In this document: piece by piece, positions 3,101 to 35,335 of the stretch | Layout: each line of letters begins with the position of its first letter | How positions within the stretch are numbered: position 1 is the first letter of the stretch | Sequence record: PQ471460.1 | Strand: one strand, 5' to 3' | Origin: Escherichia phage vB_EcoM_JE01 | DNA: 64,000 bases | Notes under the pieces: generated by a model | Seen by the model: the letters and a program-made list of their open reading frames with translations, nothing else | The model's database searches: none | Told to the model about the DNA's origin: nothing | Made by a program: the position numbers and the translations under genes

Positions 3101-4044
3101 TTTGGACGAATATTAGAATTAGTTGTTATAATGCGTAAACGTGCTTTACTATCCCCGTCAAACAATCTCCACAATTTCTCATTATCATCAAACATCAAGA
3201 AACCGTCAATCGATGTACGGCCTTCAATGGAATGAGTTCCAACTTCTTGTACTGAAGTTGTTTCATCATATGTAGTAACAATTGTGTGATAAAGAGGATT
3301 TAATTTATCCAAATCAACGAAATTAATAATATCGCCATGATTGGCAAATCTTGGAAGTTTAATATTAATTGCTGATGCAGAAGTAAATCTACGTACGATA
3401 AAATCGTTTGATTGCGCCTGATAGAGACTCGCAGGCGTTACAACTACAGCTTCTCTGCTATAATCAGCAACGTACATTTGCCACAGACGATTACTAAAAA
3501 TTAAAACTATCTGTGATTTTGGATGAGTCATTAGTACTGATCGTACTTGCTGACCTCTAAAATTTACAATGCTTTGTACCGGAGCTGTAATTAAAACTTG
3601 ATTAACTCCAGGTTTTCCTCCAATATCTTGGAGAACGATAGTATCACCGTCAATTGGGGTAGATGGTAAAGTAAATGTAATGTCATTACCAGCTGCAGTA
3701 TCAACTGAAATTGATTCGCCTGATTTTAATTGATAAGGTCCTGATGAAACAGTTGTCCAGTTTGCATCAGTACGTAATGCTCTCCAGCGTACGCTATTAA
3801 AAGCTCCTGCTGGTTTTGGAATATCATTTATAGCAGCCCAAAAGCGGTTATCATAAATGATTACAAAATCTTTTAAATATCCACGAGTTGGATCGTATTG
3901 TTGAACTGTGTTTTCTTGAATTAAGTAATCAACGTTGACACCGTCAGTTCCTACGGTACGATCAGCTAAAGCTACGTTGATTATTTTATCGCCACCTGCG
4001 TCCAGACCGTCTTCTGCTCTGAACTTTCTTTTAATCTCGGCCAT
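175..4044 (-). CDS. 34: Long tail fiber proximal subunit gp34
   Basis: 1289-aa ORF with ATG start at 4044; length and repetitive fibrous sequence match remembered T4 gp34; TATAAATA late promoter upstream. Confidence 0.9.
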   Translation of the reverse strand: MAEIKRKFRAEDGLDAGGDKIINVALADRTVGTDGVNVDYLIQENTVQQYDPTRGYLKDFVIIYDNRFWAAINDIPKPAGAFNSVRWRALRTDANWTTVSSGPYQLKSGESISVDTAAGNDITFTLPSTPIDGDTIVLQDIGGKPGVNQVLITAPVQSIVNFRGQQVRSVLMTHPKSQIVLIFSNRLWQMYVADYSREAVVVTPASLYQAQSNDFIVRRFTSASAINIKLPRFANHGDIINFVDLDKLNPLYHTIVTTYDETTSVQEVGTHSIEGRTSIDGFLMFDDNEKLWRLFDGDSKARLRIITTNSNIRPNEEVMVFGANNGTTQTIELQLPTDISVGDTVKISMNYMRKGQTVKIKAAGEDKIASSVQLLQFPKRSEYPPEAEWVTVQELVFNGETNYVPVLELAYIEDSDGKYWVVQQNVPTVERVDSLNDSTRARLGVIALATQAQANADLENSPQKELAITPETLANRTATETRRGIARIATTAQVNQDTTFSFADDIIITPKKLNERTATETRRGVAEIATQQETNAGTDDTTIITPKKLQARQGSESLSGIVTFVSTAGATPASSRELNGTNVYNKNTDNLVVSPKALDQYKATPTQQGAVILAVESEVIAGQSQEGWANAVVTPETLHKKTSTDGRIGLIEIATQSEVNTGTDYTRAVTPKTLNDRRATESLSGIAEIATQVEFDAGVDDTRISTPLKIKTRFNSTDRTSVVALSGLVESGTLWDHYTLNILEANETQRGTLRVATQVEAATGTLDNVLITPKKLLGTKSTEAQEGVIKVATQSETVTGTSANTAVSPKNLKWIVQSEPTWAATTAIRGFVKTSSGSITFVGNDTVGSTQDLELYEKNSYAVSPYELNRVLANYLPLKAKAVDSNLLDGLDSSQFIRRDIAQTVNGSLTLTQQTNLSAPLVSSSTATFGGSVSANSVLTISNTGTETHLIFEKGPQTGTNQAQTVTIRVWGNQFSGESDTTRSTVFEVGDETSNHFYSQRNKAGNITFNINGTVTPINVNASGTLNANGVATFGNSVTATGEIISRSANAFRAINGNYGFIVRNDGSVTNFMFTASGDQTGGFNGLRPLAINNASGQVTIGESLIIAKGATINSGGLTVNSRIRSQGTKTSDLYTRAPTSDTVGFWSIDINDSATYNQFPGYFKMVEKTNEVTGLPYLERGEEVKSPGTLTQFGNTLDSLYQDWITYPTTPEARTTRWTRTWQKTKNSWSSFVQVFDGGNPPQPSDIGALPSDNAIMGNLTIRDFLRIGNVRIVPDPVNKTVKFEWVE

Positions 4045-4078
4045 TCTCCCGGGCTCCTATTGTGTTTTCAATAATAAG

Positions 4079-4086
4079 TATTTATA
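4079..4086 (-). promoter_or_regulatory. T4-type late promoter (TATAAATA) for gene 34
   Basis: Plus strand tatttata = minus-strand TATAAATA about 35 nt upstream of gp34 ATG. Confidence 0.6.
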
Positions 4087-4089
4087 CTT

Positions 4090-4119
4090 GTTTACTTTAA
4101 GATTTGGATAGTATATAAT
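4090..4119 (+). promoter_or_regulatory. Early sigma70-type promoter upstream of rnh (GTTTAC -35, TATAAT -10)
   Basis: gtttac at 4090..4095, tataat at 4114..4119, 18-bp spacer; T4 early promoter pattern. Confidence 0.5.
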
Positions 4120-4148
4120 AGAAATCTCACTAATTGAACGAGGTTCAT

Positions 4149-5066
4149 ATGGATTTAGAAATGATGCTGGATGAAGATTACAAAGAAGGAATTTGCTTAA
4201 TTGACTTTAGTCAGATTGCGCTTTCAACTGCTTTAGTAAACTTTCCAGATAAAGAAAAAATTAATTTATCAATGGTTCGTCATTTGATATTGAACTCAAT
4301 TAAGTTTAATGTCAAAAAAGCAAAAACTCTTGGATACACTAAAATTATACTGTGTATCGATAACGCGAAATCTGGATACTGGCGTCGTGATTTTGCTTAT
4401 TATTATAAGAAAAACCGTGGAAAAGCACGAGAAGAATCTACTTGGGACTGGGAAGGTTATTTTGAATCCAGTCATAAAGTTATAGATGAATTGAAAGCTT
4501 ATATGCCATACATTGTTATGGATATTGATAAGTATGAAGCAGATGACCACATTGCTGTTCTTGTTAAAAAATTCTCTTTAGAAGGACATAAGATTTTAAT
4601 CATTTCGTCGGATGGTGACTTTACTCAACTTCATAAATACCCAAACGTTAAGCAATGGTCACCGATGCACAAGAAATGGGTTAAAATTAAAAGCGGTTCT
4701 GCTGAAATTGACTGTATGACTAAAATCCTTAAAGGCGATAAAAAGGATAACGTTGCTTCAGTTAAAGTACGATCTGACTTTTGGTTTACTAGAGTTGAAG
4801 GTGAACGAACTCCTTCAATGAAAACATCTGTTGTTGAAGCTATTGCTAATGACCGTGAGCAAGCTAAGGTGCTTCTCACTGAATCTGAATATAATCGTTA
4901 TAAAGAAAATTTAGTTCTAATTGATTTTGATTATATTCCTGATAATATTGCTTCAAACATTGTGAATTACTATAATTCATATAAATTACCACCGCGTGGC
5001 AAAATTTATTCATATTTTGTAAAAGCGGGTCTTTCTAAATTAACTAATAGCATTAATGAATTTTGA
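4149..5066 (+). CDS. rnh: RNase H (5'-3' exonuclease / flap endonuclease)
   Basis: ORF-track start 4134 is TTG; first ATG 4149 has GAGG SD and gives a 305-aa protein MDLEMMLDEDYKEGICLIDF... matching remembered T4 RNase H. Confidence 0.9.
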   Translation: MDLEMMLDEDYKEGICLIDFSQIALSTALVNFPDKEKINLSMVRHLILNSIKFNVKKAKTLGYTKIILCIDNAKSGYWRRDFAYYYKKNRGKAREESTWDWEGYFESSHKVIDELKAYMPYIVMDIDKYEADDHIAVLVKKFSLEGHKILIISSDGDFTQLHKYPNVKQWSPMHKKWVKIKSGSAEIDCMTKILKGDKKDNVASVKVRSDFWFTRVEGERTPSMKTSVVEAIANDREQAKVLLTESEYNRYKENLVLIDFDYIPDNIASNIVNYYNSYKLPPRGKIYSYFVKAGLSKLTNSINEF

Positions 5067-5074
5067 GGTGAATA

Positions 5075-5344
5075 ATGGCTAAAAAAGAAATGGTTGAATT
5101 TGATGAAGCTATCCATGGCGAAGACTTGGCTAAATTTATTAAAGAAGCATCTGATCATAAACTGAAAATTTCCGGTTATAATGAATTGATTAAAGATATT
5201 CGAATTCGTGCTAAAGATGAACTTGGCGTTGATGGAAAGATGTTTAATCGTTTATTAGCTTTGTATCATAAAGATAACCGTGATGTGTTTGAAGCTGAAA
5301 CTGAAGAGGTAGTTGAACTTTATGACACAGTTTTCTCTAAATGA
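5075..5344 (+). CDS. dsbA: DsbA double-stranded DNA-binding protein (late transcription)
   Basis: 89-aa ORF with GAGGTG SD; size and position between rnh and gene 33 as in T4. Confidence 0.8.
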   Translation: MAKKEMVEFDEAIHGEDLAKFIKEASDHKLKISGYNELIKDIRIRAKDELGVDGKMFNRLLALYHKDNRDVFEAETEEVVELYDTVFSK

Positions 5345-5660
5345 TATTCGTCCGGTCGATGAGACCGGTCTTTCAGAAAAAGAACTTTCAATTAAGAAAG
5401 AAAAGGATGAAATTGCAAAACTGCTTGATCGTCAAGAAAATGGATTTATTATTGAAAAAATGGTAGAAGAGTTTGGAATGAGTTATCTTGAAGCTACAAC
5501 AGCATTCTTGGAAGAAAATTCTATTCCTGAAACCCAATTTGCTAAATTTATTCCTTCGGGTATAATTGAAAAAATTCAGTCAGAAGCTATCGACGAAAAT
5601 CTTTTACGTCCTTCTGTTGTTCGTTGTGAAAAAACTAATACATTAGATTTTCTACTATGA
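5322..5660 (+). CDS. 33: gp33 late-transcription co-activator
   Basis: ATG at 5322 (track start 5313 is TTG); 112 aa MTQFSLNDIRPVDETGLSEKELSIKKEKDE... matches remembered T4 gp33. Confidence 0.85.
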   Translation: MTQFSLNDIRPVDETGLSEKELSIKKEKDEIAKLLDRQENGFIIEKMVEEFGMSYLEATTAFLEENSIPETQFAKFIPSGIIEKIQSEAIDENLLRPSVVRCEKTNTLDFLL

Positions 5661-6310
5661 TTAAACTCCGCATGCCTGCTGGTGGTGAAAGATACATTGA
5701 TGGTAAATCAGTTTATAAATTATACTTAATGATAAAACAACATATGAATGGAAAGTATGATGTAATTAAGTATAATTGGTGCATGCGGGTGTCTGATGCC
5801 GCTTATCAAAAGCGAAGGGATAAGTATTTTTTCCAGAAGTTATCAGAAAAATATAAATTAAAGGAACTTGCTTTAATCTTTATAAGCAATCTGGTTGCTA
5901 ACCAGGATGCTTGGATTGGTGACATCTCTGACGCTGATGCACTTGTGTTTTATCGTGAATATATCGGACGCTTAAAGCAAATTAAATTTAAGTTTGAAGA
6001 AGATATTCGCAACATTTATTATTTTAGTAAAAAAGTTGAAGTTTCTGCTTTTAAAGAAATTTTTGAATATAATCCAAAAGTTCAATCAAGTTATATTTTT
6101 AAACTACTTCAATCGAATATAATTTCGTTTGAGACGTTTATCTTGCTTGATTCGTTTTTAAATATAATTGATAAACATGATGAACAGACTGATAATTTAG
6201 TCTGGAATAATTATTCTATAAAGTTAAAGGCTTATAGAAAAATTTTAAATATTGATTCGCAGAAAGCCAAAAGTGTTTTTATTGAAACTGTGAAATCATG
6301 CAAGTATTAA
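5657..6310 (+). CDS. 59: gp59 helicase loader
   Basis: 217-aa ORF, ATGA overlap with gene 33 stop, directly upstream of gene 32. Confidence 0.9.
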   Translation: MIKLRMPAGGERYIDGKSVYKLYLMIKQHMNGKYDVIKYNWCMRVSDAAYQKRRDKYFFQKLSEKYKLKELALIFISNLVANQDAWIGDISDADALVFYREYIGRLKQIKFKFEEDIRNIYYFSKKVEVSAFKEIFEYNPKVQSSYIFKLLQSNIISFETFILLDSFLNIIDKHDEQTDNLVWNNYSIKLKAYRKILNIDSQKAKSVFIETVKSCKY

Positions 6311-6335
6311 TTGCTTATTATAAATAGATTATAAT
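6311..6335 (+). promoter_or_regulatory. Promoter cluster upstream of gene 32: MotA-box-like TGCTT, late TATAAATA and a TATAAT -10
   Basis: tgctta 6313..6318; tataaata 6319..6326; tataat 6330..6335. Confidence 0.45.
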
Positions 6336-6343
6336 TATCTCAC

Positions 6344-6409
6344 TGACCAGCTATGAGGTCATACATCGTCATAGCACCAACTGTTAATTAAATTAAAAAG
6401 GAAATAAAA
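6344..6409 (+). promoter_or_regulatory. Gene 32 autogenous translational operator: mRNA pseudoknot plus unstructured A/U-rich leader
   Basis: Stem 1 tgacc 6344..6348 / ggtca 6357..6361; stem 2 gctatga 6350..6356 / tcatagc 6368..6374 (interleaved = pseudoknot); then ttaattaaattaaaaaggaaataaaa up to the ATG. Confidence 0.7.
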
Positions 6410-7318
6410 ATGTTTAAACGTAAATCTACTGCTGAACTCGCTGCACAAATGGCTAAACTGGCTGGAAATAAAGGTGGTTTTTCTTCTGAAGATAAAGGCG
6501 AGTGGAAACTGAAACTCGATAATGCGGGTAACGGTCAAGCAGTAATTCGTTTTCTTCCGTCTAAAAATGATGAACAAGCACCATTCGCAATTCTTGTAAA
6601 TCACGGTTTCAAGAAAAACGGTAAATGGTATATCGAAAATTGCTCATCTACCCACGGTGATTACGATTCTTGCCCAGTATGTCAGTACATCAGTAAAAAT
6701 GATTTGTATAACACTGACAATAAAGAGTACGGTCTTGTTAAACGTAAAACTTCTTACTGGGCTAACATTCTTGTAGTAAAAGACCCAGCTGCTCCAGAAA
6801 ATGAAGGTAAAGTATTTAAATATCGTTTCGGTAAGAAAATCTGGGATAAAATCAACGCAATGATTGCAGTTGATGTTGAAATGGGTGAAACCCCAGTTGA
6901 TGTAACTTGTCCGTGGGAAGGTGCTAACTTTGTACTGAAAGTTAAACAAGTTTCTGGTTTTAGTAACTACGATGAATCTAAATTCCTGAATCAATCTGCG
7001 ATTCCAAACATTGATGATGAATCTTTCCAGAAAGAACTGTTCGAACAAATGGTTGACCTTTCTGAAATGACTTCTAAAGATAAATTCAAATCGTTTGAAG
7101 AACTGAGCACTAAGTTCAGTCAAGTTATGGGAACTGCTGCTATGGGTGGTGCCGCAGCAACTGCCGCTAAGAAAGCTGATAAAGTTGCTGATGATTTGGA
7201 TGCATTCAATGTTGATGACTTCAAAACAAAAACTGAAGATGATTTTATGAGCTCAAGCTCTGGCAGTTCATCTAGTGCTGATGACACGGACCTGGATGAC
7301 CTTTTGAATGACCTTTAA
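6410..7318 (+). CDS. 32: gp32 single-stranded DNA-binding protein
   Basis: 301 aa; [50 protein letters not shown]..., acidic serine-rich C-terminus; matches remembered T4 gp32. Confidence 0.95.
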
Positions 7319-7340
7319 TAGATTATATTACTAATTAATT

Positions 7341-7366
7341 GGGGACCCTAGAGGTCCCCTTTTTTA
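7341..7366 (+). terminator. Rho-independent terminator after gene 32
   Basis: ggggaccctagaggtcccc hairpin followed by tttttt. Confidence 0.7.
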
Positions 7367-7390
7367 TTTCAAAATTTTTTTCACAAAACT

Positions 7391-7420
7391 GTTTACAACC
7401 AAAGCATACTGTGGTACTAT
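7391..7420 (+). promoter_or_regulatory. Early promoter (GTTTAC -35, TACTAT -10)
   Basis: gtttac 7391..7396, tactat 7415..7420. Confidence 0.4.
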
Positions 7421-7466
7421 ACAACTATCGGCAATACTGCTGATGATGATTAAAGAGGAAAATAAC

Positions 7467-7694
7467 ATGGCTAAAATTGATATTGATGTTGTTGATTTTG
7501 AATATATTGAAGAAATTATTCGTAATCGTTATCCTGAACTCCGTATCATAAGCGCACTAAATGATCCTAATTGCAATGTTTCAGTTGTTATTGAAGGTCC
7601 TTTAAATCGTCTTAAACAATTTATGGTTAATGAATATTGTGACGGTATGGATGCTGAAGATGTAGAATTTTACACAGGATTTATTGAGCAGTAA
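7467..7694 (+). CDS. Small early ORF in the 32-frd interval (frd.3-like), function unknown
   Basis: ATG 7467 preceded by AAGAGGA SD; ORF track lists 7443..7694. Confidence 0.6.
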
Positions 7695-7738
7695 TTATTA
7701 AGGGGCTATCAAGCCCCTATTAAAATGAGGAAAACACA

Positions 7739-8104
7739 ATGTATATTGGTAGAAAATATGAACTTGTTCCAAGACTTATTGATACATTTATTAATTATCG
7801 CCCGCGTTCTAATTCATCAATAGTTAAAATTATTCAAGAAAATGGCGGATGGTTTGAAGTTAAAGAAGCTTTCTTTGCTGATGGATTTAGAGTAATAAAA
7901 CACATTGAATGCGCTAATGGAAAGCATTTTTACTTCAACGTCTGTGAAGACGAATTTCATTGTTTCCGCGAGTATAAAGAACTGACTTCTGAAGAAGATG
8001 AAGTCGAAGACAAGATTTCTGGCGTAACAAAAATTCACTGCATTGTAGACGAAAACAATGTAGATGAAATCATTGAACTTTTGCGAAAAACTTTCAAAAA
8101 GTAG
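7739..8104 (+). CDS. Small early ORF in the 32-frd interval (121 aa), function unknown
   Basis: ATG with GAGGA SD; several Cys/His residues. Confidence 0.6.
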   Translation: MYIGRKYELVPRLIDTFINYRPRSNSSIVKIIQENGGWFEVKEAFFADGFRVIKHIECANGKHFYFNVCEDEFHCFREYKELTSEEDEVEDKISGVTKIHCIVDENNVDEIIELLRKTFKK

Positions 8105-8133
8105 TTTACAGAAGGGTAGTAGTGTGATACTAT
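8104..8133 (+). promoter_or_regulatory. Early promoter (GTTTAC -35, TACTAT -10)
   Basis: gtttac 8104..8109, tactat 8128..8133; short inverted repeat agggt/accct brackets the -10. Confidence 0.4.
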
Positions 8134-8158
8134 TACCCTATCAACTAAGGAGAATAAA

Positions 8159-8401
8159 ATGAGATTACAACGTCAGAGCATCAAAGATTCAGAAGTTAAA
8201 GGTAAATGGTATTTTAATATCATCGGTAAAGATTCTGAACTTGTTGAAAAAGCTGAACATCTTTTACGTGACATGGGGTGGGAAGATGAATGTGATGGAT
8301 GCCCTCTTTATGAAGATGGAGAAAGCGCAGGATTCTGGATTTACCATTCTGACGTTGATCAGTTTAAAGCTGATTGGAAAATTGTGAAAAAGTCTATTTG
8401 A
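8159..8401 (+). CDS. Small early ORF (80 aa), function unknown
   Basis: ATG with AAGGAG SD; contains a CDGC motif. Confidence 0.6.
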   Translation: MRLQRQSIKDSEVKGKWYFNIIGKDSELVEKAEHLLRDMGWEDECDGCPLYEDGESAGFWIYHSDVDQFKADWKIVKKSI

Positions 8402-8411
8402 GGAAAATAAT

Positions 8412-8654
8412 ATGATTTTTGTATTTGAATTTATGAATGATGAATTCGATTATGCAATTTTTAACGCATTGCATAATCCTGATTTAAATGAATTTAATGA
8501 AATGTTTTCTGACGCTTTGAGTATGTCAGAAGAATACTGCGGAGAATGTCAACGTGTTTGTGTGACAGTCTTTGAAAACAAAGAAAAGACATATGAAGAA
8601 TTATTCTTTGACGCTAATAAAGCCACTGAATGGTTTATTGAAAGGGGATTTTGA
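8412..8654 (+). CDS. Small early ORF (80 aa), function unknown
   Basis: ATG with GAGGA SD; CGEC motif. Confidence 0.55.
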   Translation: MIFVFEFMNDEFDYAIFNALHNPDLNEFNEMFSDALSMSEEYCGECQRVCVTVFENKEKTYEELFFDANKATEWFIERGF

Positions 8655-26775: not shown

Positions 26776-27044
26776 TGTTTGTTGTTCATACTATTTATGA
26801 AAATGAAGGTAATACTACACGTGATTACGGTCACGTAAATCAATTTTTTAGATGCAATCCAGAATTCCGTGCTCAAAAAGACGAACGAATTTTTAAAAAA
26901 TGTGTAGAACAAGGTTTCATTTACGTCAAGCATTGGATGCAAGGAAATAAAGTTAGAACTACATATCATAAGTCTTTGCCTGAGCTTAATGATGAATTGA
27001 TTTATAATAGAGATGTAAATCAAACTCTGAAGGATGAACAATGA
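26775..27044 (+). CDS. Small ORF (30.1-like, 89 aa)
   Basis: ATGA overlap with ligase start. Confidence 0.5.
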   Translation: MFVVHTIYENEGNTTRDYGHVNQFFRCNPEFRAQKDERIFKKCVEQGFIYVKHWMQGNKVRTTYHKSLPELNDELIYNRDVNQTLKDEQ

Positions 27045-28504
27045 TTCTTAAAATTCTGAATGAAATAGCATCTATTGGATCAACTAAACAGAAGCAAGCA
27101 ATTCTTGAAAAGAATAAAGATAATGAATTGCTTAAACGAGTATATCGTCTGACTTATTCTCGTGGGTTACAGTATTATATCAAGAAATGGCCTAAACCTG
27201 GTATTGCTACCCAGAGTTTTGGAATGCTGACTATTACCGATATGCTTGACTTCATTGAATTCACATTAGCTACTCGGAAATTGACTGGAAACGCGGCAAT
27301 TGAGGAATTAACTGGATATATCACCGATGGTAAAAAGGATGATGTTGAAGTTTTGCGTCGAGTTATGATGCGAGACCTTGAATGCGGTGCTTCAGTATCT
27401 ATTGCAAACAAAGTTTGGCCAGGTTTAATTCCTGAACAACCTCAAATGCTGGCAAGTTCTTATGATGAAAAAGGCATTAGTAAGAATATCAAGTTTCCAG
27501 CTTTTGCGCAGTTAAAAGCAGATGGAGCTCGGTGTTTTGCTGAAGTCAGAGGTGATGAATTAGATGATGTTCGTCTTTTATCACGAGCTGGCAATGAATA
27601 CCTAGGATTAGATCTTCTTAAGGAAGAGTTAATCAAAATGACTGCTGAAGCCCGCCAGATTCATCCAGAAGGCGTGTTAATCGATGGCGAATTGGTATAC
27701 CATGAGCAAGTTAAAAAGGAACCAGAAGGCCTAGATTTTCTTTTTGATGCTTATCCTGAAATTAGTAAAGCTAAAGAATTCGCCAAAGTAGCGGAATCTC
27801 GTACTGCTTCTAATGGAATCGCCAATAAATCCTTAAAAGGAACCATTTCCGAAAAAGAAGCCAAATGCATGAAGTTTCAGGTCTGGGATTATGTCCCGTT
27901 GGTAGAAATATACGGTCTTCAGGCGTTTCGTTTAAAATATGATGTACGTTTTTCTAAACTAGAACAAATGACATCAGGATATGATAAAGTAATTTTAATT
28001 GAAAACCAGGTAGTAAATAACCTAGATGAAGCTAAGGTAATTTATAAAAAATATATTGACCAAGGTCTTGAAGGTATTATTCTCAAAAATACCGATGGAT
28101 TGTGGGAAAATGCTCGTTCAAAAAATCTCTATAAATTTAAAGAAGTAATTGATGTTGATTTAAAAATTGTAGGAATTTATCCTCACCGTAAAGACCCTAC
28201 TAAAGCGGGTGGATTTATTCTTGAATCAGAGTGTGGAAAAATTAAAGTAAATGCAGGTTCAGGCTTAAAAGATAAAGCCGGTGTAAAATCGCATGAACTT
28301 GACCGTACTCGCATTATGGAAAACCAAAATTATTATATTGGAAAAATTCTAGAGTGCGAATGCAACGGTTGGTTAAAATCTGATGGCCGCACTGATTACG
28401 TTAAATTATTTCTTCCGATTGCGATTCGTTTACGTGAAGATAAAACTAAAGCTAATACATTCGAGGATGTATTTGGTGATTTTCATGAGGTAACTGGTCT
28501 ATGA
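27041..28504 (+). CDS. 30: ATP-dependent DNA ligase
   Basis: 487 aa; adenylation lysine motif KADGAR; matches remembered T4 DNA ligase. Confidence 0.95.
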   Translation: MILKILNEIASIGSTKQKQAILEKNKDNELLKRVYRLTYSRGLQYYIKKWPKPGIATQSFGMLTITDMLDFIEFTLATRKLTGNAAIEELTGYITDGKKDDVEVLRRVMMRDLECGASVSIANKVWPGLIPEQPQMLASSYDEKGISKNIKFPAFAQLKADGARCFAEVRGDELDDVRLLSRAGNEYLGLDLLKEELIKMTAEARQIHPEGVLIDGELVYHEQVKKEPEGLDFLFDAYPEISKAKEFAKVAESRTASNGIANKSLKGTISEKEAKCMKFQVWDYVPLVEIYGLQAFRLKYDVRFSKLEQMTSGYDKVILIENQVVNNLDEAKVIYKKYIDQGLEGIILKNTDGLWENARSKNLYKFKEVIDVDLKIVGIYPHRKDPTKAGGFILESECGKIKVNAGSGLKDKAGVKSHELDRTRIMENQNYYIGKILECECNGWLKSDGRTDYVKLFLPIAIRLREDKTKANTFEDVFGDFHEVTGL

Positions 28505-28689
28505 AAGCTTACTTAGAAACAATTGTCGTGGCTCAAAAAGAAGGTGGAGATGTTTCTACTTCTGTATCACAAATCGTTCTCGAATTTGTAGATGCATATG
28601 CTTATAATAAATTTACAGAAACATTTGATGCCTATGAAAAAGGGCCAAAGTTTGAAATATATCGTACTCTCTTACCATTAGATTATTAA
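28501..28689 (+). CDS. Small ORF after ligase (62 aa)
   Basis: ATGA overlap with gene 30 stop. Confidence 0.45.
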   Translation: MKAYLETIVVAQKEGGDVSTSVSQIVLEFVDAYAYNKFTETFDAYEKGPKFEIYRTLLPLDY

Positions 28690-28705
28690 AGGCCTTCGGG
28701 CCTTT
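28688..28705 (+). terminator. UUCG-tetraloop hairpin terminator
   Basis: aaaggccttcgggccttt followed by T-rich tract. Confidence 0.6.
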
Positions 28706-28710
28706 AATTT

Positions 28711-28718
28711 TATAAATA
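28711..28718 (+). promoter_or_regulatory. Late promoter (TATAAATA) upstream of alt
   Basis: tataaata about 24 nt upstream of the alt ATG; Alt is a virion-packaged late protein. Confidence 0.6.
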
Positions 28719-28741
28719 GAATAAACACTAGAGAGGATATG

Positions 28742-30835
28742 ATGGAACTTATTACAGAATTATTTGACGAAGATACTACTCTTCCGATTACAAACTTAAA
28801 TCCAAAGAAGAAAATACCGCAAATTTTTTCAGTTCATGTTGATGACGCAATTGAACAACCAGGCTTTCGTTTATGTACCTATACATCTGGAGGTGATACT
28901 AATCGCGATTTAAAAATGGGCGATAAAATGATGCATATTGTTCCTTTTACATTAACTGCTAAAGGTTCAATTGCTAAATTAAAAGGTCTCGGTCCAAGCC
29001 CAATTAATTACATCAATTCAGTTTTTACTGTTGCAATGCAGACGATGCGTCAGTATAAAATTGATGCCTGTATGCTCCGTATTCTTAAGTCTAAAACTGC
29101 TGGTCAAGCTCGACAAATTCAAGTTATTGCTGATAGACTTATCCGTAGTCGTTCAGGTGGCAGATACGTCCTTCTTAAGGAACTCTGGGATTATGATAAA
29201 AAGTATGCATATATTCTTATACATCGCAAAAATGTATCACTAGAAGACATTCCAGGAGTTCCTGAAATTAGTACCGAGCTCTTTACTAAAGTTGAATCGA
29301 AAGTCGGCGATGTTTATATCAATAAAGATACTGGAGCTCAAGTAACTAAAAATGAGGCAATTGCTGCTTCTATTGCACAAGAAAATGATAAACGTTCTGA
29401 CCAAGCTGTAATCGTTAAAGTTAAAATTTCCCGTAGAGCAATTGCACAAAGTCAGTCATTGGAATCTTCTAGATTTGAAAGTGAATTATTCCAGAAATAT
29501 GAATCTACCGCAGCTAATTTCAATAAACCTGCTACAGCTCCTTTAATTCCCGAAGCAGAAGAAATGAAGCTTGGAATTAATTCATTAGCTTCTAAAACTA
29601 AGGCAGCAAAAATTATTGCCGAAGGAACCGCAGATGAACTTCACTATGACTATAAATTCTTTTCAAAAAGTGAGGTTAATGAAGTTTCTGAAAAAATTAA
29701 AGATGTAATTCTCAATGCGATTAAAAATGAACCAACCACTTCAATAAAATGTTTAGAGAAATACGCAGCAGCTGTTAATCAATTCTTTGAAGAATATAAA
29801 GATAATTGGCTTGATAAACATAATAAAACCCGTAAAGGACAGCCAGATGAAGTCTGGGAAGAAATAACTAAAAATTCCTGGAACGCAGCAAAAACTAAAT
29901 TCCTCAAACGAATGATTTATAGCTTTTCTGGAATTGGTGCAGGTCCAATGATTGATATTACTATTGCCCGTGATGGTTCTAAATATACTCCATCGCAAAA
30001 GCGCGGCATTAGAGAGTATTGTGGATCAGGATATACTGACATCAATAATCTTCTTTTAGGCCGCTACAATCCAGAACGATATGATGTAATGAGTGAAAAA
30101 GAAATTGAATCTGCGATAAATAATTTAGATTCAGCTTTTGAAAATGGTGACCGTATACCAGAAGGCATTACAGTTTATCGTGCTCAAAGTATGACTGCTC
30201 CTATATACGAAGCGCTAGTTAAAAATAAAGTGTTCTATTTCAGAAATTTTGTATCTACTTCTTTAACTCCTATCATTTTTGGACGTTTTGGAATTACACA
30301 TGCTGGCATCGGTCTTTTAGAACCAGAAGCTCGTAATGAATTAACAGTTGATAAAAATGAAGAAGGAATAACTATTAATCCAAACGAAATAAGAGCGTAT
30401 AAAGAAAATCCTGAATACGTTAAAGTTCAAATAGGATGGGCAATTGATGGAGCTCATAAAGTTAATGTTGTATATCCAGGAAGTCTCGGAATAGCAACAG
30501 AAGCTGAAGTTATTCTACCACGCGGATTGATGGTCAAAGTTAATAAAATAACTGATGCTTCTAATAATGACGGAACAACATCTAATAATACAAAACTCAT
30601 TCAAGCTGAAGTTATGACTACGGAAGAACTCACTGAATCGGTAATCTATGATGGAGACCATTTAATGGAAACTGGTGAAGTAGTTGCAATGACAGATGAT
30701 ATTGAAATAGAAGACAGAGTTGACTTTGCATCATTTGTTTCATCAAATGTTAAACAGAAAGCAGAATCATCTCTTGGAATTATTGCGTCTTGCATAGATA
30801 TTACAAACATGCCTTACAAGTTCGTTCAAGGATAA
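28742..30835 (+). CDS. alt: Alt-type ADP-ribosyltransferase (head-packaged), paralog 1
   Basis: About 697 aa; MELITE N-terminus; C-terminal ART hallmarks: Arg in GITVYRAQS, STS motif FVSTSL, ExE-type motif ATEAEVILPRG. Confidence 0.85.
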   Translation: MELITELFDEDTTLPITNLNPKKKIPQIFSVHVDDAIEQPGFRLCTYTSGGDTNRDLKMGDKMMHIVPFTLTAKGSIAKLKGLGPSPINYINSVFTVAMQTMRQYKIDACMLRILKSKTAGQARQIQVIADRLIRSRSGGRYVLLKELWDYDKKYAYILIHRKNVSLEDIPGVPEISTELFTKVESKVGDVYINKDTGAQVTKNEAIAASIAQENDKRSDQAVIVKVKISRRAIAQSQSLESSRFESELFQKYESTAANFNKPATAPLIPEAEEMKLGINSLASKTKAAKIIAEGTADELHYDYKFFSKSEVNEVSEKIKDVILNAIKNEPTTSIKCLEKYAAAVNQFFEEYKDNWLDKHNKTRKGQPDEVWEEITKNSWNAAKTKFLKRMIYSFSGIGAGPMIDITIARDGSKYTPSQKRGIREYCGSGYTDINNLLLGRYNPERYDVMSEKEIESAINNLDSAFENGDRIPEGITVYRAQSMTAPIYEALVKNKVFYFRNFVSTSLTPIIFGRFGITHAGIGLLEPEARNELTVDKNEEGITINPNEIRAYKENPEYVKVQIGWAIDGAHKVNVVYPGSLGIATEAEVILPRGLMVKVNKITDASNNDGTTSNNTKLIQAEVMTTEELTESVIYDGDHLMETGEVVAMTDDIEIEDRVDFASFVSSNVKQKAESSLGIIASCIDITNMPYKFVQG

Positions 30836-30838
30836 ATC

Positions 30839-32896
30839 ATGGAACTTATTACAGAATTATTTGACGGCGCTTCGGCGCCGGTTGTTAACTTAAATCCTAA
30901 GCATAAAATACCTCAAATTTTTGCTATTCAAGCAGGTGAAGAAAGCGTGCTTCCTGGATTTAGATTTTGTACATACACCTCTGGCGGTGATACAAACAAA
31001 AACGTTAAGCCAGGCGATAAAATGATGCATATCGTAATGATAGGTGTTAATGAGAAACTATCATTAGTTAAACTTAAAAACTTGGGTGGAAATCCAATTG
31101 GTGTTATTAATGCAGTTTTTGATACTGCTCTTCAAACAATGAAACAGTATAAAATTGACGCATGCCTATTCCGCGTACTAAAGAGTAAAACAAACGGTGC
31201 AGCTCGTCAAATGCAAGTTATTGCCGACCGTTTAGTACGTACTAAAGGAGCAGGTCGATATGTTCTTTTAAAGGAAATCTGGGACTATGATAAGAAATAT
31301 GCATATATTATGGTTTATCGTAAAAATGCCAATTTAGAAGACATTCCAGGTGTACCTCCTATTTCAACTGAGTTATTCACAAAGGTTGAATCAAAGGTTG
31401 GTGATGTTTATGTAGATGTTAAAACAGGTAATGCTGTTCCTAAAGCTGTTGCTGTTGCTGCTTCTATTGCTTTAGAAAATGATAAGCGCACGGATCAAGC
31501 TGTAATTCAAAAAACTAAAATTAGTCGTCGATTAGCAGCACAAGCTCAATATTCTACTGTCGATGCTTCACTTCAGGGTGATAGCTTCGCTGCTAAGAAA
31601 TACCAAGAGTTTGAATCTAAAGTTCCGGTATATAAAGCAGAAGGACCAATGAACTCCGGCGTTATTCAGGTTGGTTCAAACTTCAGCAAAGGAGCTATCG
31701 GTGGTATGAGAAGTGCTTCTCGTTTTAAATCTAATGATTATGAACTAGAAAGCTTCCGAAATCATATTGCATTGGCTCATGCACGTTTACGTGATCCATC
31801 TATCAAGTTACAGAGCGATATAACATATCAAGGTTCTCAAGAATATTTAAAGAATAAAGAATTTTTTGATTATAAAACTGATAAAATTTTAAGCGATCTT
31901 GCTGACATTAATATTTCTAATAGCTTTGATGTTATTAAGAAAATCGTCAATGATTTAGTTAAAGGTTCTAAAGCCACGCCAGATGAAAAGGTAGCTATTG
32001 TTCAATTTGTCATGAATGGCGTGTATAAATTGATTAATGAGTCTGCTTCTCAAGCGTATGAATATGCAAGTACTGAAGTACCCCCAAAAGGATTAACTCA
32101 GGCTGAGTCTGATGTAATTGAAGATTATTGTGCAGATTCATATGTTGAAATGAACTCGTTCCTTTTAGGTAAACCGGATTCTACCCGTGAAGAATATATG
32201 GAACGAGCTATTAAACACATCGAGACAATGGATTCTGCCTTTGCCAAAGGATCAGTTCTTCCTCCAGGAACTACACTTTACCGTGGGCAAGAAGTTACTT
32301 TTAAAACTTTACGTCATAATATTGAAAATAAAATGTTCTATTTCAAGAACTTCGTATCCACATCGCTTAAACCAAATATCTTCGGTGAGTATGGTAAAAA
32401 CTATATGGCTCTAGATGATTCCAGTACAGTATTTTCTGGTGAAGGAGAAGGTTCAGTTGATGCTGAAGATTTAATGCATATGGGTAGTCACTCTGCTTAT
32501 GCGAATGAAGATGCTGAAACTAGCGTAGGTATGGTAATTAAAGGGGCTGAGCGAATTAAAGTTATCGTTCCAGGTCATTTATCAGGATTTCCATCAGAAG
32601 CTGAAGTTATTTTACCACGTGGAATTTTGCTGAAGATTAATAAAGTGAGTACGTACATGATGAAAGAAACTGCTTATAACAAGTATCTAATCGAAGGCAC
32701 AATCGTTCCTCCTTCTGAACAATTAGAAGAATCGGTATATGATGGCGACCACCTGATGGAAACTGGTGAAGTTCGTCCAATGACTGGGTTTAATCAATTC
32801 CTTGTAGAAGAATCAAAAGAAGAGGAAAACGAAGTTTCTCAAATCTTGGCTTCTTTGATTAACATCAACGGAATGTCTAAAAAGTTCAAAATGTAG
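30839..32896 (+). CDS. Alt-type ADP-ribosyltransferase, paralog 2 (tandem)
   Basis: 685 aa; N-terminal about 200 aa closely similar to paralog 1; retains YRGQE, FVSTSL, SEAEVILPRG and conserved YDGDHLMETGEV; central region divergent. Confidence 0.8.
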   Translation: MELITELFDGASAPVVNLNPKHKIPQIFAIQAGEESVLPGFRFCTYTSGGDTNKNVKPGDKMMHIVMIGVNEKLSLVKLKNLGGNPIGVINAVFDTALQTMKQYKIDACLFRVLKSKTNGAARQMQVIADRLVRTKGAGRYVLLKEIWDYDKKYAYIMVYRKNANLEDIPGVPPISTELFTKVESKVGDVYVDVKTGNAVPKAVAVAASIALENDKRTDQAVIQKTKISRRLAAQAQYSTVDASLQGDSFAAKKYQEFESKVPVYKAEGPMNSGVIQVGSNFSKGAIGGMRSASRFKSNDYELESFRNHIALAHARLRDPSIKLQSDITYQGSQEYLKNKEFFDYKTDKILSDLADINISNSFDVIKKIVNDLVKGSKATPDEKVAIVQFVMNGVYKLINESASQAYEYASTEVPPKGLTQAESDVIEDYCADSYVEMNSFLLGKPDSTREEYMERAIKHIETMDSAFAKGSVLPPGTTLYRGQEVTFKTLRHNIENKMFYFKNFVSTSLKPNIFGEYGKNYMALDDSSTVFSGEGEGSVDAEDLMHMGSHSAYANEDAETSVGMVIKGAERIKVIVPGHLSGFPSEAEVILPRGILLKINKVSTYMMKETAYNKYLIEGTIVPPSEQLEESVYDGDHLMETGEVRPMTGFNQFLVEESKEEENEVSQILASLININGMSKKFKM

Positions 32897-32949
32897 TTTA
32901 CAAGTCCCTCGTGTTGTGTTATAGTAATCTTACTGACATAACATGAGGA
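32896..32949 (+). repeat. Copy B of the ~54-bp promoter-containing repeat
   Basis: gtttacaagtccctcgtgttgtgttatagta[atc]ttactgacataacatgagga; matches 17203..17256 with a 3-nt difference. Confidence 0.8.
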
Positions 32950-32956
32950 ACACAAA

Positions 32957-33247
32957 ATGAAATCTTCTTTGCGCTTTTTAGGTCAAGAACTTGTAGTTGA
33001 AGGCGTTATTCCTGCTGATAACGCCTTTAATGAAGCAGTTTATGATGAATTTATCAAAATTTTTGGAACAGATAAAAAGTTCGGAATTTTTCCTTCTGAA
33101 AATTTTTCAAAGCCAGAGCAGACTGAAAGTATTTTCCAAGGTGTAGTAACAGGTAAATTTGAGTCAGAAGCTCCAGTAAAAATTGAAGTTTATATTGAAG
33201 ACAGTTTAGTTGCTTCAGTTTCTGCTTTTATTTCATTCCGTAAATAA
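32957..33247 (+). CDS. Small ORF downstream of the alt pair (96 aa), function unknown
   Basis: ATG with GAGGA SD inside the repeat; ends at a bidirectional terminator. Confidence 0.55.
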   Translation: MKSSLRFLGQELVVEGVIPADNAFNEAVYDEFIKIFGTDKKFGIFPSENFSKPEQTESIFQGVVTGKFESEAPVKIEVYIEDSLVASVSAFISFRK

Positions 33248-33251
33248 AAAT

Positions 33252-33273
33252 ATGGGGACCTTTCGGTCCCCAT
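33252..33273. terminator. Bidirectional hairpin terminator between convergent genes
   Basis: atggggacctttcggtccccat palindrome between the + ORF and gene 54 (-). Confidence 0.65.
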
Positions 33274-33275
33274 TG

Positions 33276-34241
33276 TTATATTGCTCCTAATATTTTACTT
33301 TGCGAATTGACAATTCCCGTCATAGTATTAATGTTTGAAATGCTTCCTGCAGTTCCTCCTAATCTACTAAGTCGTGAAAGCGAATTAGATAGTCCAGTAA
33401 CACCTCCACTATTTCCGAGAACGCTTTGAATGCCATTTATAGCAGCAGATTCAAGCCACTCAAGCGCAGCCTGTCTATCAACTGACCCAGCCTGCATGAC
33501 TCTATACGCAAAAGTAACATCAAATGTAGTTATTTGGTTATCTCCATCATATGATAACTCAGGAGCGCTCACTGACACTGGAATGCATCCAGTGAACATC
33601 ACCGCAGTATGAGGTAATCCATTACGAGCATGAAGATTAACCTGAATATCTGCCTCGACATCTTGTGGCAAAGCACGCAATCCAGTTACTGGGTCTTGAA
33701 CAGCGTTAACCCAGTCTTGCATTGCACGATAATTACATGCTTCTGAATCCATTCTAAATGAAATAACCAAAGGGTCTAATTCTCTCCCAGTTATACGAAT
33801 ATTAGGAGAATTATAGTTCCAGTCAGTTTCATAGGATAATCTATTCTCTGGCATTTTTACAGAATATATCATCAATCCAGATGAGTTATATGCCATGTTA
33901 AAGAAGTCAATTAAATATGTACCAACTGTAAATGAGCCCAATAAACTTTGAACTGTACGTTGACTCATGGCACCAATAAGATATTTACTAACCCCTGATT
34001 TTCTTATCAGTTTTTGTGTGCCAGCAGTAATTAGCGTGGTAATTCCCTGATTAATATCGCCTTGAGTCAATCCTAACCATTCTGAATTTAGACCCAAGTT
34101 ATTATAAGAAAAGTTGCTAATTGAACTTATCAACGAAGAGCTTTTAGTTGATGGAGTTGTCGCAAAAACGCAGCTAAACATATTATTACGTTGGAAATCT
34201 GCGTTTATTGCTTGATTATTAAATTCCTCTAAAGAATACAT
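33276..34241 (-). CDS. 54: gp54 baseplate tail-tube initiator
   Basis: 321-aa ORF, position and length as T4 gp54; ATGA-coupled to gene 48. Confidence 0.85.
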   Translation of the reverse strand: MYSLEEFNNQAINADFQRNNMFSCVFATTPSTKSSSLISSISNFSYNNLGLNSEWLGLTQGDINQGITTLITAGTQKLIRKSGVSKYLIGAMSQRTVQSLLGSFTVGTYLIDFFNMAYNSSGLMIYSVKMPENRLSYETDWNYNSPNIRITGRELDPLVISFRMDSEACNYRAMQDWVNAVQDPVTGLRALPQDVEADIQVNLHARNGLPHTAVMFTGCIPVSVSAPELSYDGDNQITTFDVTFAYRVMQAGSVDRQAALEWLESAAINGIQSVLGNSGGVTGLSNSLSRLSRLGGTAGSISNINTMTGIVNSQSKILGAI

Positions 34242-35335
34242 TAAAAAGTCCCCGCATATAAAGAAGCACGGTTTAACGTGATAATTTCTCTCATAGTAAT
34301 CTCAAGGGTAAATGTACTAGGGAGGTTTGGAGCAATAGCTAATCCGTTAAAGTTACCATTAGGTGTTTTATCAAATCTGATACTCTGTATTTGACATGGA
34401 CCAAATATTTCCGTTTTTCCATCAAACTTAGATGTTGCACCAAAGTTTTTCACCATCCAAATTGTCGGGTTTGAAACTACTAGAACGTTAGTTAAACTCG
34501 ATGTCATTTTCTCAAATAGTGTTTTATTTTTAGCTGCGTCTTCCGGAGATAAAGGTTCAATTAATGTAGAACGATACCAATCATCTAAATACCCCTTTAT
34601 TTCAGCAGCATATTGAGATTTGCCCGTTTCACCATAAGAAAAATAGTTAAAATATTGATAGATATTAATAATAGCCATTAAATCTTCTGTGGAACGTGGA
34701 GTCAAATCCCATGTGAACACTTTAGTTCTATTTTCAGCACCACCATACATACTTCTGGCTGTCGTATAAATCTGTTCATTATTATCAGCCATTATACCTT
34801 GCGTTATACTTTCTAGCGCACCAAATACTGCAGTTGAAGCAATATTACTTAGCACACCAGTGGCAGTACCTCCACCTCTGCTGATAAGACTTTCTTGAAC
34901 ATCATTAAATCTATGTGATGATGTATCAACATCGGATTTAGATCTTGGTAAAAGAATATTTGCAACAGGTGCTTTACTTATTGTTCCTGAATTATTATCT
35001 GATATTAATCCATTTGATAGTTTTGATACTGTACTACTAATAGTGTTTCTGGCTGTACGTAAAATACTCGAAGATGAAGAAGAGTAGTTAGATCTCATCG
35101 ATCTAAGACTTCCAGAATCCCTAGATGACATATTGTATGCAGTAAATAATAATCCATTCTTATATAGATCTGTTACCTGGAAGTCCCCTGTAGTGTCATT
35201 ACCACTAGCACGCCCAGTTGGAAACTGGGCAGTGTATGTTTTAGTTGCTACTTCTGATTTAGTACTCTGTCCGGCTGAAATTTTCTCACCGGACTTTTTA
35301 ATTAAATCAGCAGTTATTTCTTTAACAATTGCCAT
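34241..35335 (-). CDS. 48: gp48 baseplate tail-tube junction protein
   Basis: 364-aa ORF in the 29-48-54 order. Confidence 0.85.
   Translation of the reverse strand: MAIVKEITADLIKKSGEKISAGQSTKSEVATKTYTAQFPTGRASGNDTTGDFQVTDLYKNGLLFTAYNMSSRDSGSLRSMRSNYSSSSSSILRTARNTISSTVSKLSNGLISDNNSGTISKAPVANILLPRSKSDVDTSSHRFNDVQESLISRGGGTATGVLSNIASTAVFGALESITQGIMADNNEQIYTTARSMYGGAENRTKVFTWDLTPRSTEDLMAIINIYQYFNYFSYGETGKSQYAAEIKGYLDDWYRSTLIEPLSPEDAAKNKTLFEKMTSSLTNVLVVSNPTIWMVKNFGATSKFDGKTEIFGPCQIQSIRFDKTPNGNFNGLAIAPNLPSTFTLEITMREIITLNRASLYAGTF

Follow-up and report, generated by a model that had tools for sequence, protein, structure and literature searches.

Tandem Alt-type ADP-ribosyltransferase genes of Escherichia phage vB_EcoM_JE01: a two-gene alt locus of the T2/T6 type

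The Alt protein of phage T4 (gpAlt, NP_049811) is a head-packaged and injected NAD+:arginine mono-ADP-ribosyltransferase. Each head contains ~40 copies; the protein is built into the prohead core, undergoes trimming by gp21 and, when ejected together with the DNA, ADP-ribosylates the alpha subunit of RNA polymerase as well as other proteins (PMC9958956, PMC9026906, PMC5512222). Mass spectrometry showed that gp21 cuts T4 Alt after ITE-6 and LTE-619, by which 63 C-terminal residues are removed (PMC5694885). Paralogues of alt in T4-like phages were already listed by Nolan et al. 2006 (PMC1524935), among them ORF187c of phage 44RR, which duplicates alt over its full length. Nearly all biochemistry of injected phage ADP-ribosyltransferases (ARTs) was done on T4 Alt. 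Here we describe the alt locus in a stretch of 64,000 nucleotides (nt) of Escherichia phage vB_EcoM_JE01 (PQ471460.1), called the window below, which is part of a T4-like (Tequatrovirus) genome. Two tandem alt paralogues, gene 1 and gene 2, were found there (Table 1). They very probably form an ordinary alt locus of the T2/T6 type, whose two late products would be trimmed by gp21, injected, and directed to different or partly overlapping host targets.

The two co-oriented open reading frames (ORFs) of 697 and 685 amino acids (aa) with a 3-nt gap were correctly placed in the initial annotation, as the ORF list confirms. We took the second ATG (MELITE) as the start of gene 1, because it matches the annotated start in T4, T2, T6 and PP01; the ORF lister begins 3 nt upstream (MMELITE). 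Both genes are predicted to encode Alt-type ARTs with intact catalytic residues. The Pfam family PF03496 (ADPrib_exo_Tox, cut-off 23.4) matched gene 1 with 129 bits (E = 1.8e-37) and gene 2 with 73 bits (E = 2.6e-20), and phrog_802 ("Alt-like RNA polymerase ADP-ribosyltransferase") covered aa 1-696 of gene 1 (E = 4.5e-273) and aa 1-685 of gene 2 (E = 6.1e-255). The ART hallmarks reported at first, namely the Arg, FVSTSL and EAEVILPRG, were found in both proteins, at YRAQ-479, FVSTSL-503 and EAEVILPRG-587 in gene 1 and at YRGQ-481, FVSTSL-505 and EAEVILPRG-587 in gene 2. None of the catalytic residues (Arg, Ser-Thr-Ser, Glu-x-Glu) varies among the 24 diverse homologues that were aligned.

The pair is an ordinary locus of the T2/T6 type, already known and annotated ("Alt-like RNA polymerase ADP-ribosyltransferase (x2)"). 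Using the 4.9-kb locus as query, megablast found 544 phage records, 351 of them with one place covering at least 80% of the query, and most phages among the matches listed have two Alt-like ADP-ribosyltransferases annotated. T2 (MH751506) and T6 (NC_054907) have the same pair, with genes of 2,094 and 2,058 nt, the same 3-nt gap and the same flanking genes, and the 7.3-kb region of both phages is collinear with the window at 95-96% identity. Identical architecture at 95-98% nucleotide identity is shared by T2, T6, PP01 and ~350 further Tequatrovirus records. The second gene of T2 is labelled merely "hypothetical protein, alt.-1"; otherwise there is no difference of substance from the window. 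Tandem Alt paralogues at the same locus are also present as alta/altb of the JS98/IME08 type, as the 44RR duplicate and as the triple of phage LHE83, in one to three copies with ~45-50% identity to gene 2. The initial annotation had implied that the pair was a novelty that arose by duplication from a single-gene state like that of T4. Neither the novelty nor the direction was supported: the two-gene state is common in Tequatrovirus, and because T4 lost its second gene, the evolutionary direction is the reverse. The annotated two-gene arrangement is thus shared by most relatives but not by T4 itself.

T4 was described at first as having a single alt gene. It does have one intact alt, but its alt.-1 and alt.-2 are remnants of a second one. 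The alt.-1 product (NP_049810) is 95% identical to aa 1-56 of gene 2 and the alt.-2 product (NP_049809) is 98% identical to aa 62-116, and both genes lie at the same place downstream of alt. In the T4 record they are annotated as an (old) duplicate of the initial part of alt. The gene 2 homologue, full length in the window, is interrupted in T4, where 1,699 nt are lost out of frame. The lost segment is flanked by near-identical 9-nt direct repeats, CTAAAGAGT (31178-31186) and CTAAAAAGT (32877-32885). The final ~20 nt of gene 2 including the stop remain in T4 and are read out of frame as the tail of alt.-2, and the odd tail of alt.-2 is explained by this out-of-frame deletion. Judged from the junction, the single-gene state of T4 is secondary and goes back to a ~1.7-kb deletion in the second gene.

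Comparison with the intact T4 gene indicated the same locus (alt.1 to alt.-3/gene 54) and the same four-part layout as in the window genes. T4 Alt shares with them MELITE, ITE-6, an aligned LxE site, YDGDHLMETGE and the R / STS / ExE residues; however, the biochemically studied enzyme is neither of the window proteins. Gene 1 is 70% identical to T4 Alt overall, and 237 of the 238 N-terminal residues are the same. Past aa ~238 the identity is ~54% over ~458 aa (middle, ART domain and tail). It is 31% in the middle region (64% in the first 40-aa block and 11-35% in most blocks), ~62% in the ART domain and 85-95% in the C-terminal tail, and the DNA of gene 1 could not be aligned with T4 by blastn over 29548-29978. 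For gene 2 the overall identity to T4 Alt is 42%, with 67% in the N-terminal domain, an unalignable middle and ~36% in the ART domain. These similarities are too low for taking the window genes as functional orthologues of T4 Alt, and equal substrates cannot be assumed from them. The published inactivating mutation "Alt E577A" (PMC11404850) does not fall on a Glu in RefSeq T4 Alt, which has E574 and E576 and a Val at residue 577; it is probably a one-residue numbering offset.

The resemblance of the two paralogues to each other is far above chance, with 41% identity over the full length in BLASTP (E = 4e-160). It is distributed unevenly along the proteins. AlphaFold models of both show an alpha/beta part (1 to ~238), an all-helical part (~240-415), the ART domain (~420-625) and a low-confidence tail, and each full-length protein has a computed size of ~76-78 kDa. 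The N-terminal ~200 aa, said to be near-identical, are clearly less similar than that: the first ~238 aa are only ~67% identical (55-75% per 40-aa block), and the N-terminal domains are 68-69% identical at the DNA level. A recent duplication of alt is ruled out by this DNA identity. The N-terminal domain of gene 1 (aa 1-238) is presumed to be a head-incorporation module. PF26846 is present on all full-length Alt homologues in precomputed annotations and absent from the Pfam scan run here, and presumably it covers the N-terminal domain. Foldseek searches of PDB and BFVD gave mainly ART-domain or Alt-family matches and did not identify the N-terminal and middle domains by fold.

The centres of the two proteins are indeed unrelated, as reported at first, but they extend over ~180 aa (roughly aa 239-420) and not 250 aa. 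Identity between them is 12-20% per 40-aa block. Hidden homology of the two middle regions was looked for by hhalign on separate family alignments and was rejected (probability 0.3%, E = 0.23). Both middle regions are predicted to be all-helical in the AlphaFold models, and this helical character is the only trait they share. The ART domains are again related, with about 33-45% identity between gene 1 and gene 2.

The ART domains were also compared with proteins outside the Alt family. In Foldseek, the ART domain of the gene 1 model matched Vis, CDTa, iota, VIP2 and C3, and that of the gene 2 model matched Vis, C3, Certhrax, VIP2 and CDTa. The C3, VIP2 / iota / CDTa and Vis toxins thus have an ART fold like both models (E = 1e-5 to 4e-8), and the single-domain toxins Vis and C3 reach a template modelling score of ~0.6-0.7 (target-normalised) to both predicted ART domains. 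However, the sequence identity of these toxins to both proteins is merely 14-21%, and they are delivered by secretion or through binary-toxin pores, not from a phage head. A sequence search against solved structures gave a marginal match to Vis only (E = 0.8), no Alt structure was present in the Foldseek PDB results, and NCBIfam had no match for the Alt proteins of the window. T4 ModA and ModB are ARTs with an R-S-E active site which are paralogous to Alt and are not injected from the phage head (PMC5512222). By their description they are set apart from the window proteins, being without the N-terminal domain, the middle region and the propeptides.

Cleavage by gp21 can be predicted from the alignment with T4 Alt. 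Both proteins begin with MELITELFD, as T4 Alt does, and ITE-6 is identical, so the (L/I)xE consensus noticed at the MELITE start is real in both. At the other end, LTE-619 of T4 aligns with LTE-632 of gene 1 and LEE-631 of gene 2, and its Glu is invariant in 24 homologues. The mass computed for residues 7-619 of T4 Alt is 68.2 kDa, the value given in PMC5694885. Because both cleavage motifs are kept in each paralogue, the comparison supports that both are gp21-processed head proteins. Given the intact catalytic residues, the cleavage sites, the single late motif and the diverged centres and ART domains, it is reasonable to suppose two processed and packaged enzymes with different specificities.

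One motif has to be removed from the list of ART hallmarks. YDGDHLMETGEV, which had been counted among them, does occur in both proteins, but its position is beyond the Pfam match to the ART domain and past the site aligned with LTE-619, which excludes it as a catalytic hallmark; it therefore belongs to the removed C-terminal propeptide and not to the catalytic core. The propeptide motif Y-D-G-D-x-x-x-E-x-G-E, at aa 636-647 of gene 1 (30647-30682) and aa 634-645 of gene 2 (32738-32773), is invariant in 24/24 homologues and is conserved beyond much of the enzyme. It includes a second (L/I)xE motif (HLME). It is possible that the motif is cut by gp21 as well, serves in targeting or has an autoinhibitory role.

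Both genes are intact in the window, PP01, T6, T2 and DalCa. The ratio of nonsynonymous to synonymous substitution rates (dN/dS) against PP01, T6 and T2 is 0.03-0.05 for gene 1. For gene 2 it is 0.02-0.06, with dS up to 0.27. These low ratios indicate strong purifying selection on both genes and argue that both are functional. Gene 2 as a pseudogene or chance ORF is excluded by the intact ORF in five genomes, the dN/dS of 0.02-0.06 and the invariant catalytic residues.

A T4-type late promoter motif, TATAAATA, precedes gene 1. The statement that a single late promoter lies before the pair was confirmed at the level of the motif, as TATAAATA has its sole copy on either strand of 27001..34300 at 28711..28718. 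Between the two genes the consensus scan gave nothing terminator-like on the + strand. The AAGGA ribosome-binding site of gene 2 reaches into the end of gene 1, the final bases of the site being the codon that precedes the TAA stop. Genes 1 and 2 are probably co-transcribed as a late operon from TATAAATA at 28711; co-transcription is the simplest reading because of the one late motif, the absence of a + strand terminator-like site between the genes, and the ribosome-binding site. The GC-rich hairpin at 28688..28708, just upstream, was not listed by the consensus terminator scan. In phage DalCa the homologous position carries an annotated rho-independent terminator, and a conserved terminator upstream of alt was reported (Nolan et al. 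2006, PMC1524935). The hairpin is a probable terminator, which would keep the transcript of gene 30 / alt.1 apart from the alt operon.

The cargo, by which we mean all of the protein past the N-terminal domain, was compared across phage records. At identity of at least 95%, tblastn found the gene 2 cargo (aa 240 to the end) in ~401 records, the gene 1 cargo in ~312 records and the T4-type cargo in ~159 records. Phage DalCa has a T4-type cargo in position 1 and an intact gene 2. Yersinia phage PST has a single alt gene (2281-4341), in which residues 1-100 are those of gene 1 and residues 101-686 are of the gene 2 type. Such a hybrid would be the expected product of unequal crossing-over between the tandem N-terminal domains, and the metagenomic proteins P0004, P0006 and P0007 are hybrids similar to the PST alt. 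In Dhakavirus LHE83 there are three alt genes in tandem (4284-6368, 6372-8417, and one more across the record start). The ART domain of its first alt is 94% identical to that of gene 1, but the N-terminal domain just 46%, which indicates, as far as sequence comparison goes, that the cargo module was exchanged between genera. The DalCa, PST and LHE83 cases point to a cargo that can be exchanged between two conserved flanks, the delivery domain on one side and the C-terminal propeptide on the other. Sequences of one and the same cargo type are stable (95-99% conserved, low dN/dS).

It may be, although we hold this somewhat short of even confidence, that the alt locus of T-even phages is a cassette-exchange site where cargo modules (helical middle and ART domain), lying between the conserved delivery domain and propeptide, are swapped, duplicated (one to three copies) or deleted by homologous recombination, with gene 2 as an injected effector whose host or defence-system target is another than those of T4 Alt, and the T4 cargo as a minority allele. 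If this is true, gene 2 was overlooked because the model phage T4 deleted that gene.

Taken together, the locus is best explained as two injected enzymes of the T2/T6 type. Each protein would be made of four parts: a conserved N-terminal alpha/beta domain, a variable helical middle, a C3/VIP2-like R-S-ExE ART domain and, at the C-terminus, a conserved propeptide. If they behave like T4 Alt, both products would be made late and would enter the prohead core via the shared N-terminal part. There gp21 would cut each of them behind ITE-6 and a second time behind LTE-632 in gene 1 and LEE-631 in gene 2, leaving mature proteins of ~70 and ~69 kDa by computation. After injection along with the DNA they would mono-ADP-ribosylate arginines in proteins of the host at the onset of infection, with NAD+ as substrate. 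Because the middle regions are unrelated and the ART domains diverged, the host proteins modified by the two enzymes would most likely differ, or overlap only in part.

Several points weigh against this explanation. T4 grows well without gene 2, so the role of gene 2 is dispensable in laboratory hosts. T4 Alt itself modifies many proteins (PMC5512222), and for this reason the differences in the middle and ART domains need not mean different targets. The AlphaFold models were built from 24 sequences only and are of moderate confidence, with a mean predicted local distance difference test (pLDDT) score of 75.6 and 76.6. In the library searched, the literature search found no paper on a second Alt paralogue, no virion proteomics with two Alt proteins and no direct evidence for translation, packaging, cleavage or activity of the gene 2 product.

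The loss of gene 2 from T4, by the 1.7-kb deletion with disruption of the frame, after which the phage stays fully viable, could also be understood if gene 2 were a redundant or decaying duplicate with the function of gene 1, kept by linkage only and heading for loss; the collapse of the pair to one gene in phage PST fits with this. We give it little credence: the gene 2 ORF is intact with low dN/dS though dS reaches 0.27, its cargo is kept at high identity in hundreds of records with invariant catalytic residues, and the PST hybrid retains the gene 2 cargo and drops that of gene 1, the middle regions being unrelated. A similarly small chance is left for gene 2 being an active ART which is not packaged in the head, working late in the producing cell, or having a non-catalytic structural or scaffolding role in the prohead core. 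Packaging of the gene 2 product is something we infer, and Alt is cited in PMC11404850 as an important core protein apart from catalysis. Yet gene 2 keeps the N-terminal domain (~67%), an identical MELITE, the aligned LxE site, the C-terminal propeptide motif and the signals for late co-transcription, and such delivery features would be expected mainly of a head protein that gp21 processes.

A different question is whether the pair serves mainly counter-defence and not RNA polymerase reprogramming, each cargo neutralising a different immunity or toxin-antitoxin system at an arms-race cassette site. Evasion of Mokosh type I requires T4 Alt, which rescues plating, and the Bas37 variant of Alt fails to substitute for it (bioRxiv 10.1101/2025.11.20.689424), so that Alt variants have plausibly diverged in function. 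The same preprint cites published work which links Alt to MazF. Cargo swaps between conserved flanks point the same way, as in LHE83 and in the T4-type and gene 1-type cargoes on an identical N-terminal domain, in 1-3 copies. The high conservation of the cargo types (95-99%) and the low dN/dS are nevertheless unlike ongoing positive selection, and neither protein has a defence system linked to it in the window, so we regard the counter-defence role as a tentative proposal. It is compatible with two injected enzymes of the T2/T6 type and not exclusive of them.

Most T-even relatives including T2 and T6 would inject another position-1 cargo than T4 (~54% identical), and probably a second enzyme as well. 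Because Alt variants were not interchangeable against Mokosh in transposon sequencing, the substrates of both paralogues offer a tractable route to how injected enzymes shape host range. Knowing these substrates would extend a known theme, and the pair is not a new kind of system; the remaining interest lies in the function of gene 2 and in the cargo exchange.

Table 1. Features of the alt locus and its surroundings in the 64,000-nt window of phage vB_EcoM_JE01
Feature	Coordinates	Strand	Basis or remark
DNA ligase gene 30	27041..28504	+	End overlapped by alt.1 start
alt.1 homologue, 62 aa, upstream neighbour	28501..28689	+	Pfam PF24647, phrog_1976; T4 alt.1 position
GC-rich hairpin AAAGGCC-TTCG-GGCCTTT followed by AATTTT	28688..28708	+	Read from the sequence itself
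T4-type late promoter motif TATAAATA	28711..28718	+	24 nt upstream of gene 1 start
alt paralogue 1 (gene 1), 697 aa + stop, T2/T6-type alt allele	28742..30835	+	
Gene 1 N-terminal alpha/beta domain, aa 1-238, with MELITE propeptide (ITE-6)	28742..29455	+	AlphaFold, T4 match
Gene 1 variable all-helical middle region, aa 239-420	29456..30001	+	Helices H248-H408 in model
Gene 1 ART domain, aa 421-632, ending at LTE-632	30002..30637	+	R480, S505/S507, E587/E589
Gene 1 C-terminal propeptide, aa 633-697, with YDGDHLMETGEV	30638..30832	+	Alignment to T4; low model confidence
alt paralogue 2 (gene 2), 685 aa + stop	30839..32896	+	
Gene 2 N-terminal alpha/beta domain, aa 1-237, with MELITE propeptide	30839..31549	+	Alignment, model
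Gene 2 variable all-helical middle region, aa 238-418	31550..32092	+	Helices H250-H413 in model
Gene 2 ART domain, aa 419-631, ending at LEE-631	32093..32731	+	R482, S507/S509, E587/E589
Gene 2 C-terminal propeptide, aa 632-685, with YDGDHLMETGEV	32732..32893	+	pLDDT <50 over aa 630-647
Segment absent from T4, 1,699 nt	31187..32885	+	blastn against T4, junction sequences
Sigma-70 / T4-early-like promoter candidate: TTTACA, 17 nt, TATAGT, with TG	32897..32925	+	Consensus match only
alt.-3 homologue, 96 aa, DUF5498, downstream neighbour	32957..33247	+	T4 alt.-3 position
Bidirectional terminator hairpin, alt.-3 / convergent gene 54	33252..33273	.	Scan; annotated likewise in DalCa

The gene order on the + strand is gene 30, alt.1, gene 1, gene 2 and alt.-3, followed by genes 54 and 48, which are convergent on the minus strand. 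The same order, 30 - alt.1 - alt - (alt) - alt.-3 - 54 - 48, is present in T4, T2 and T6. The promoter candidate behind gene 2 had the top score of the scan (10/12 matches) and begins immediately behind the gene 2 stop; alt.-3 (DUF5498) may be expressed early from it, independently of the late alt operon. T4 keeps the same promoter-like sequence adjoining its deletion junction. The start of alt.1 forms an ATGA overlap with the ligase stop, and its 62-aa product matched Pfam PF24647 "Phage blade protein" with E = 1e-29. In some GenBank records alt.1 carries the label "siderophore-interacting protein", which looks like a propagated mis-annotation.

The late promoter motif was also counted over the whole window. 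There are 17 copies of TATAAATA in the 64 kb against 9.3 expected, and 17 was reached in 0 of 100 shuffles. Between 39533 and 57755, 11 of the 12 copies are on the minus strand, and this cluster fits with blocks of late genes transcribed leftward.

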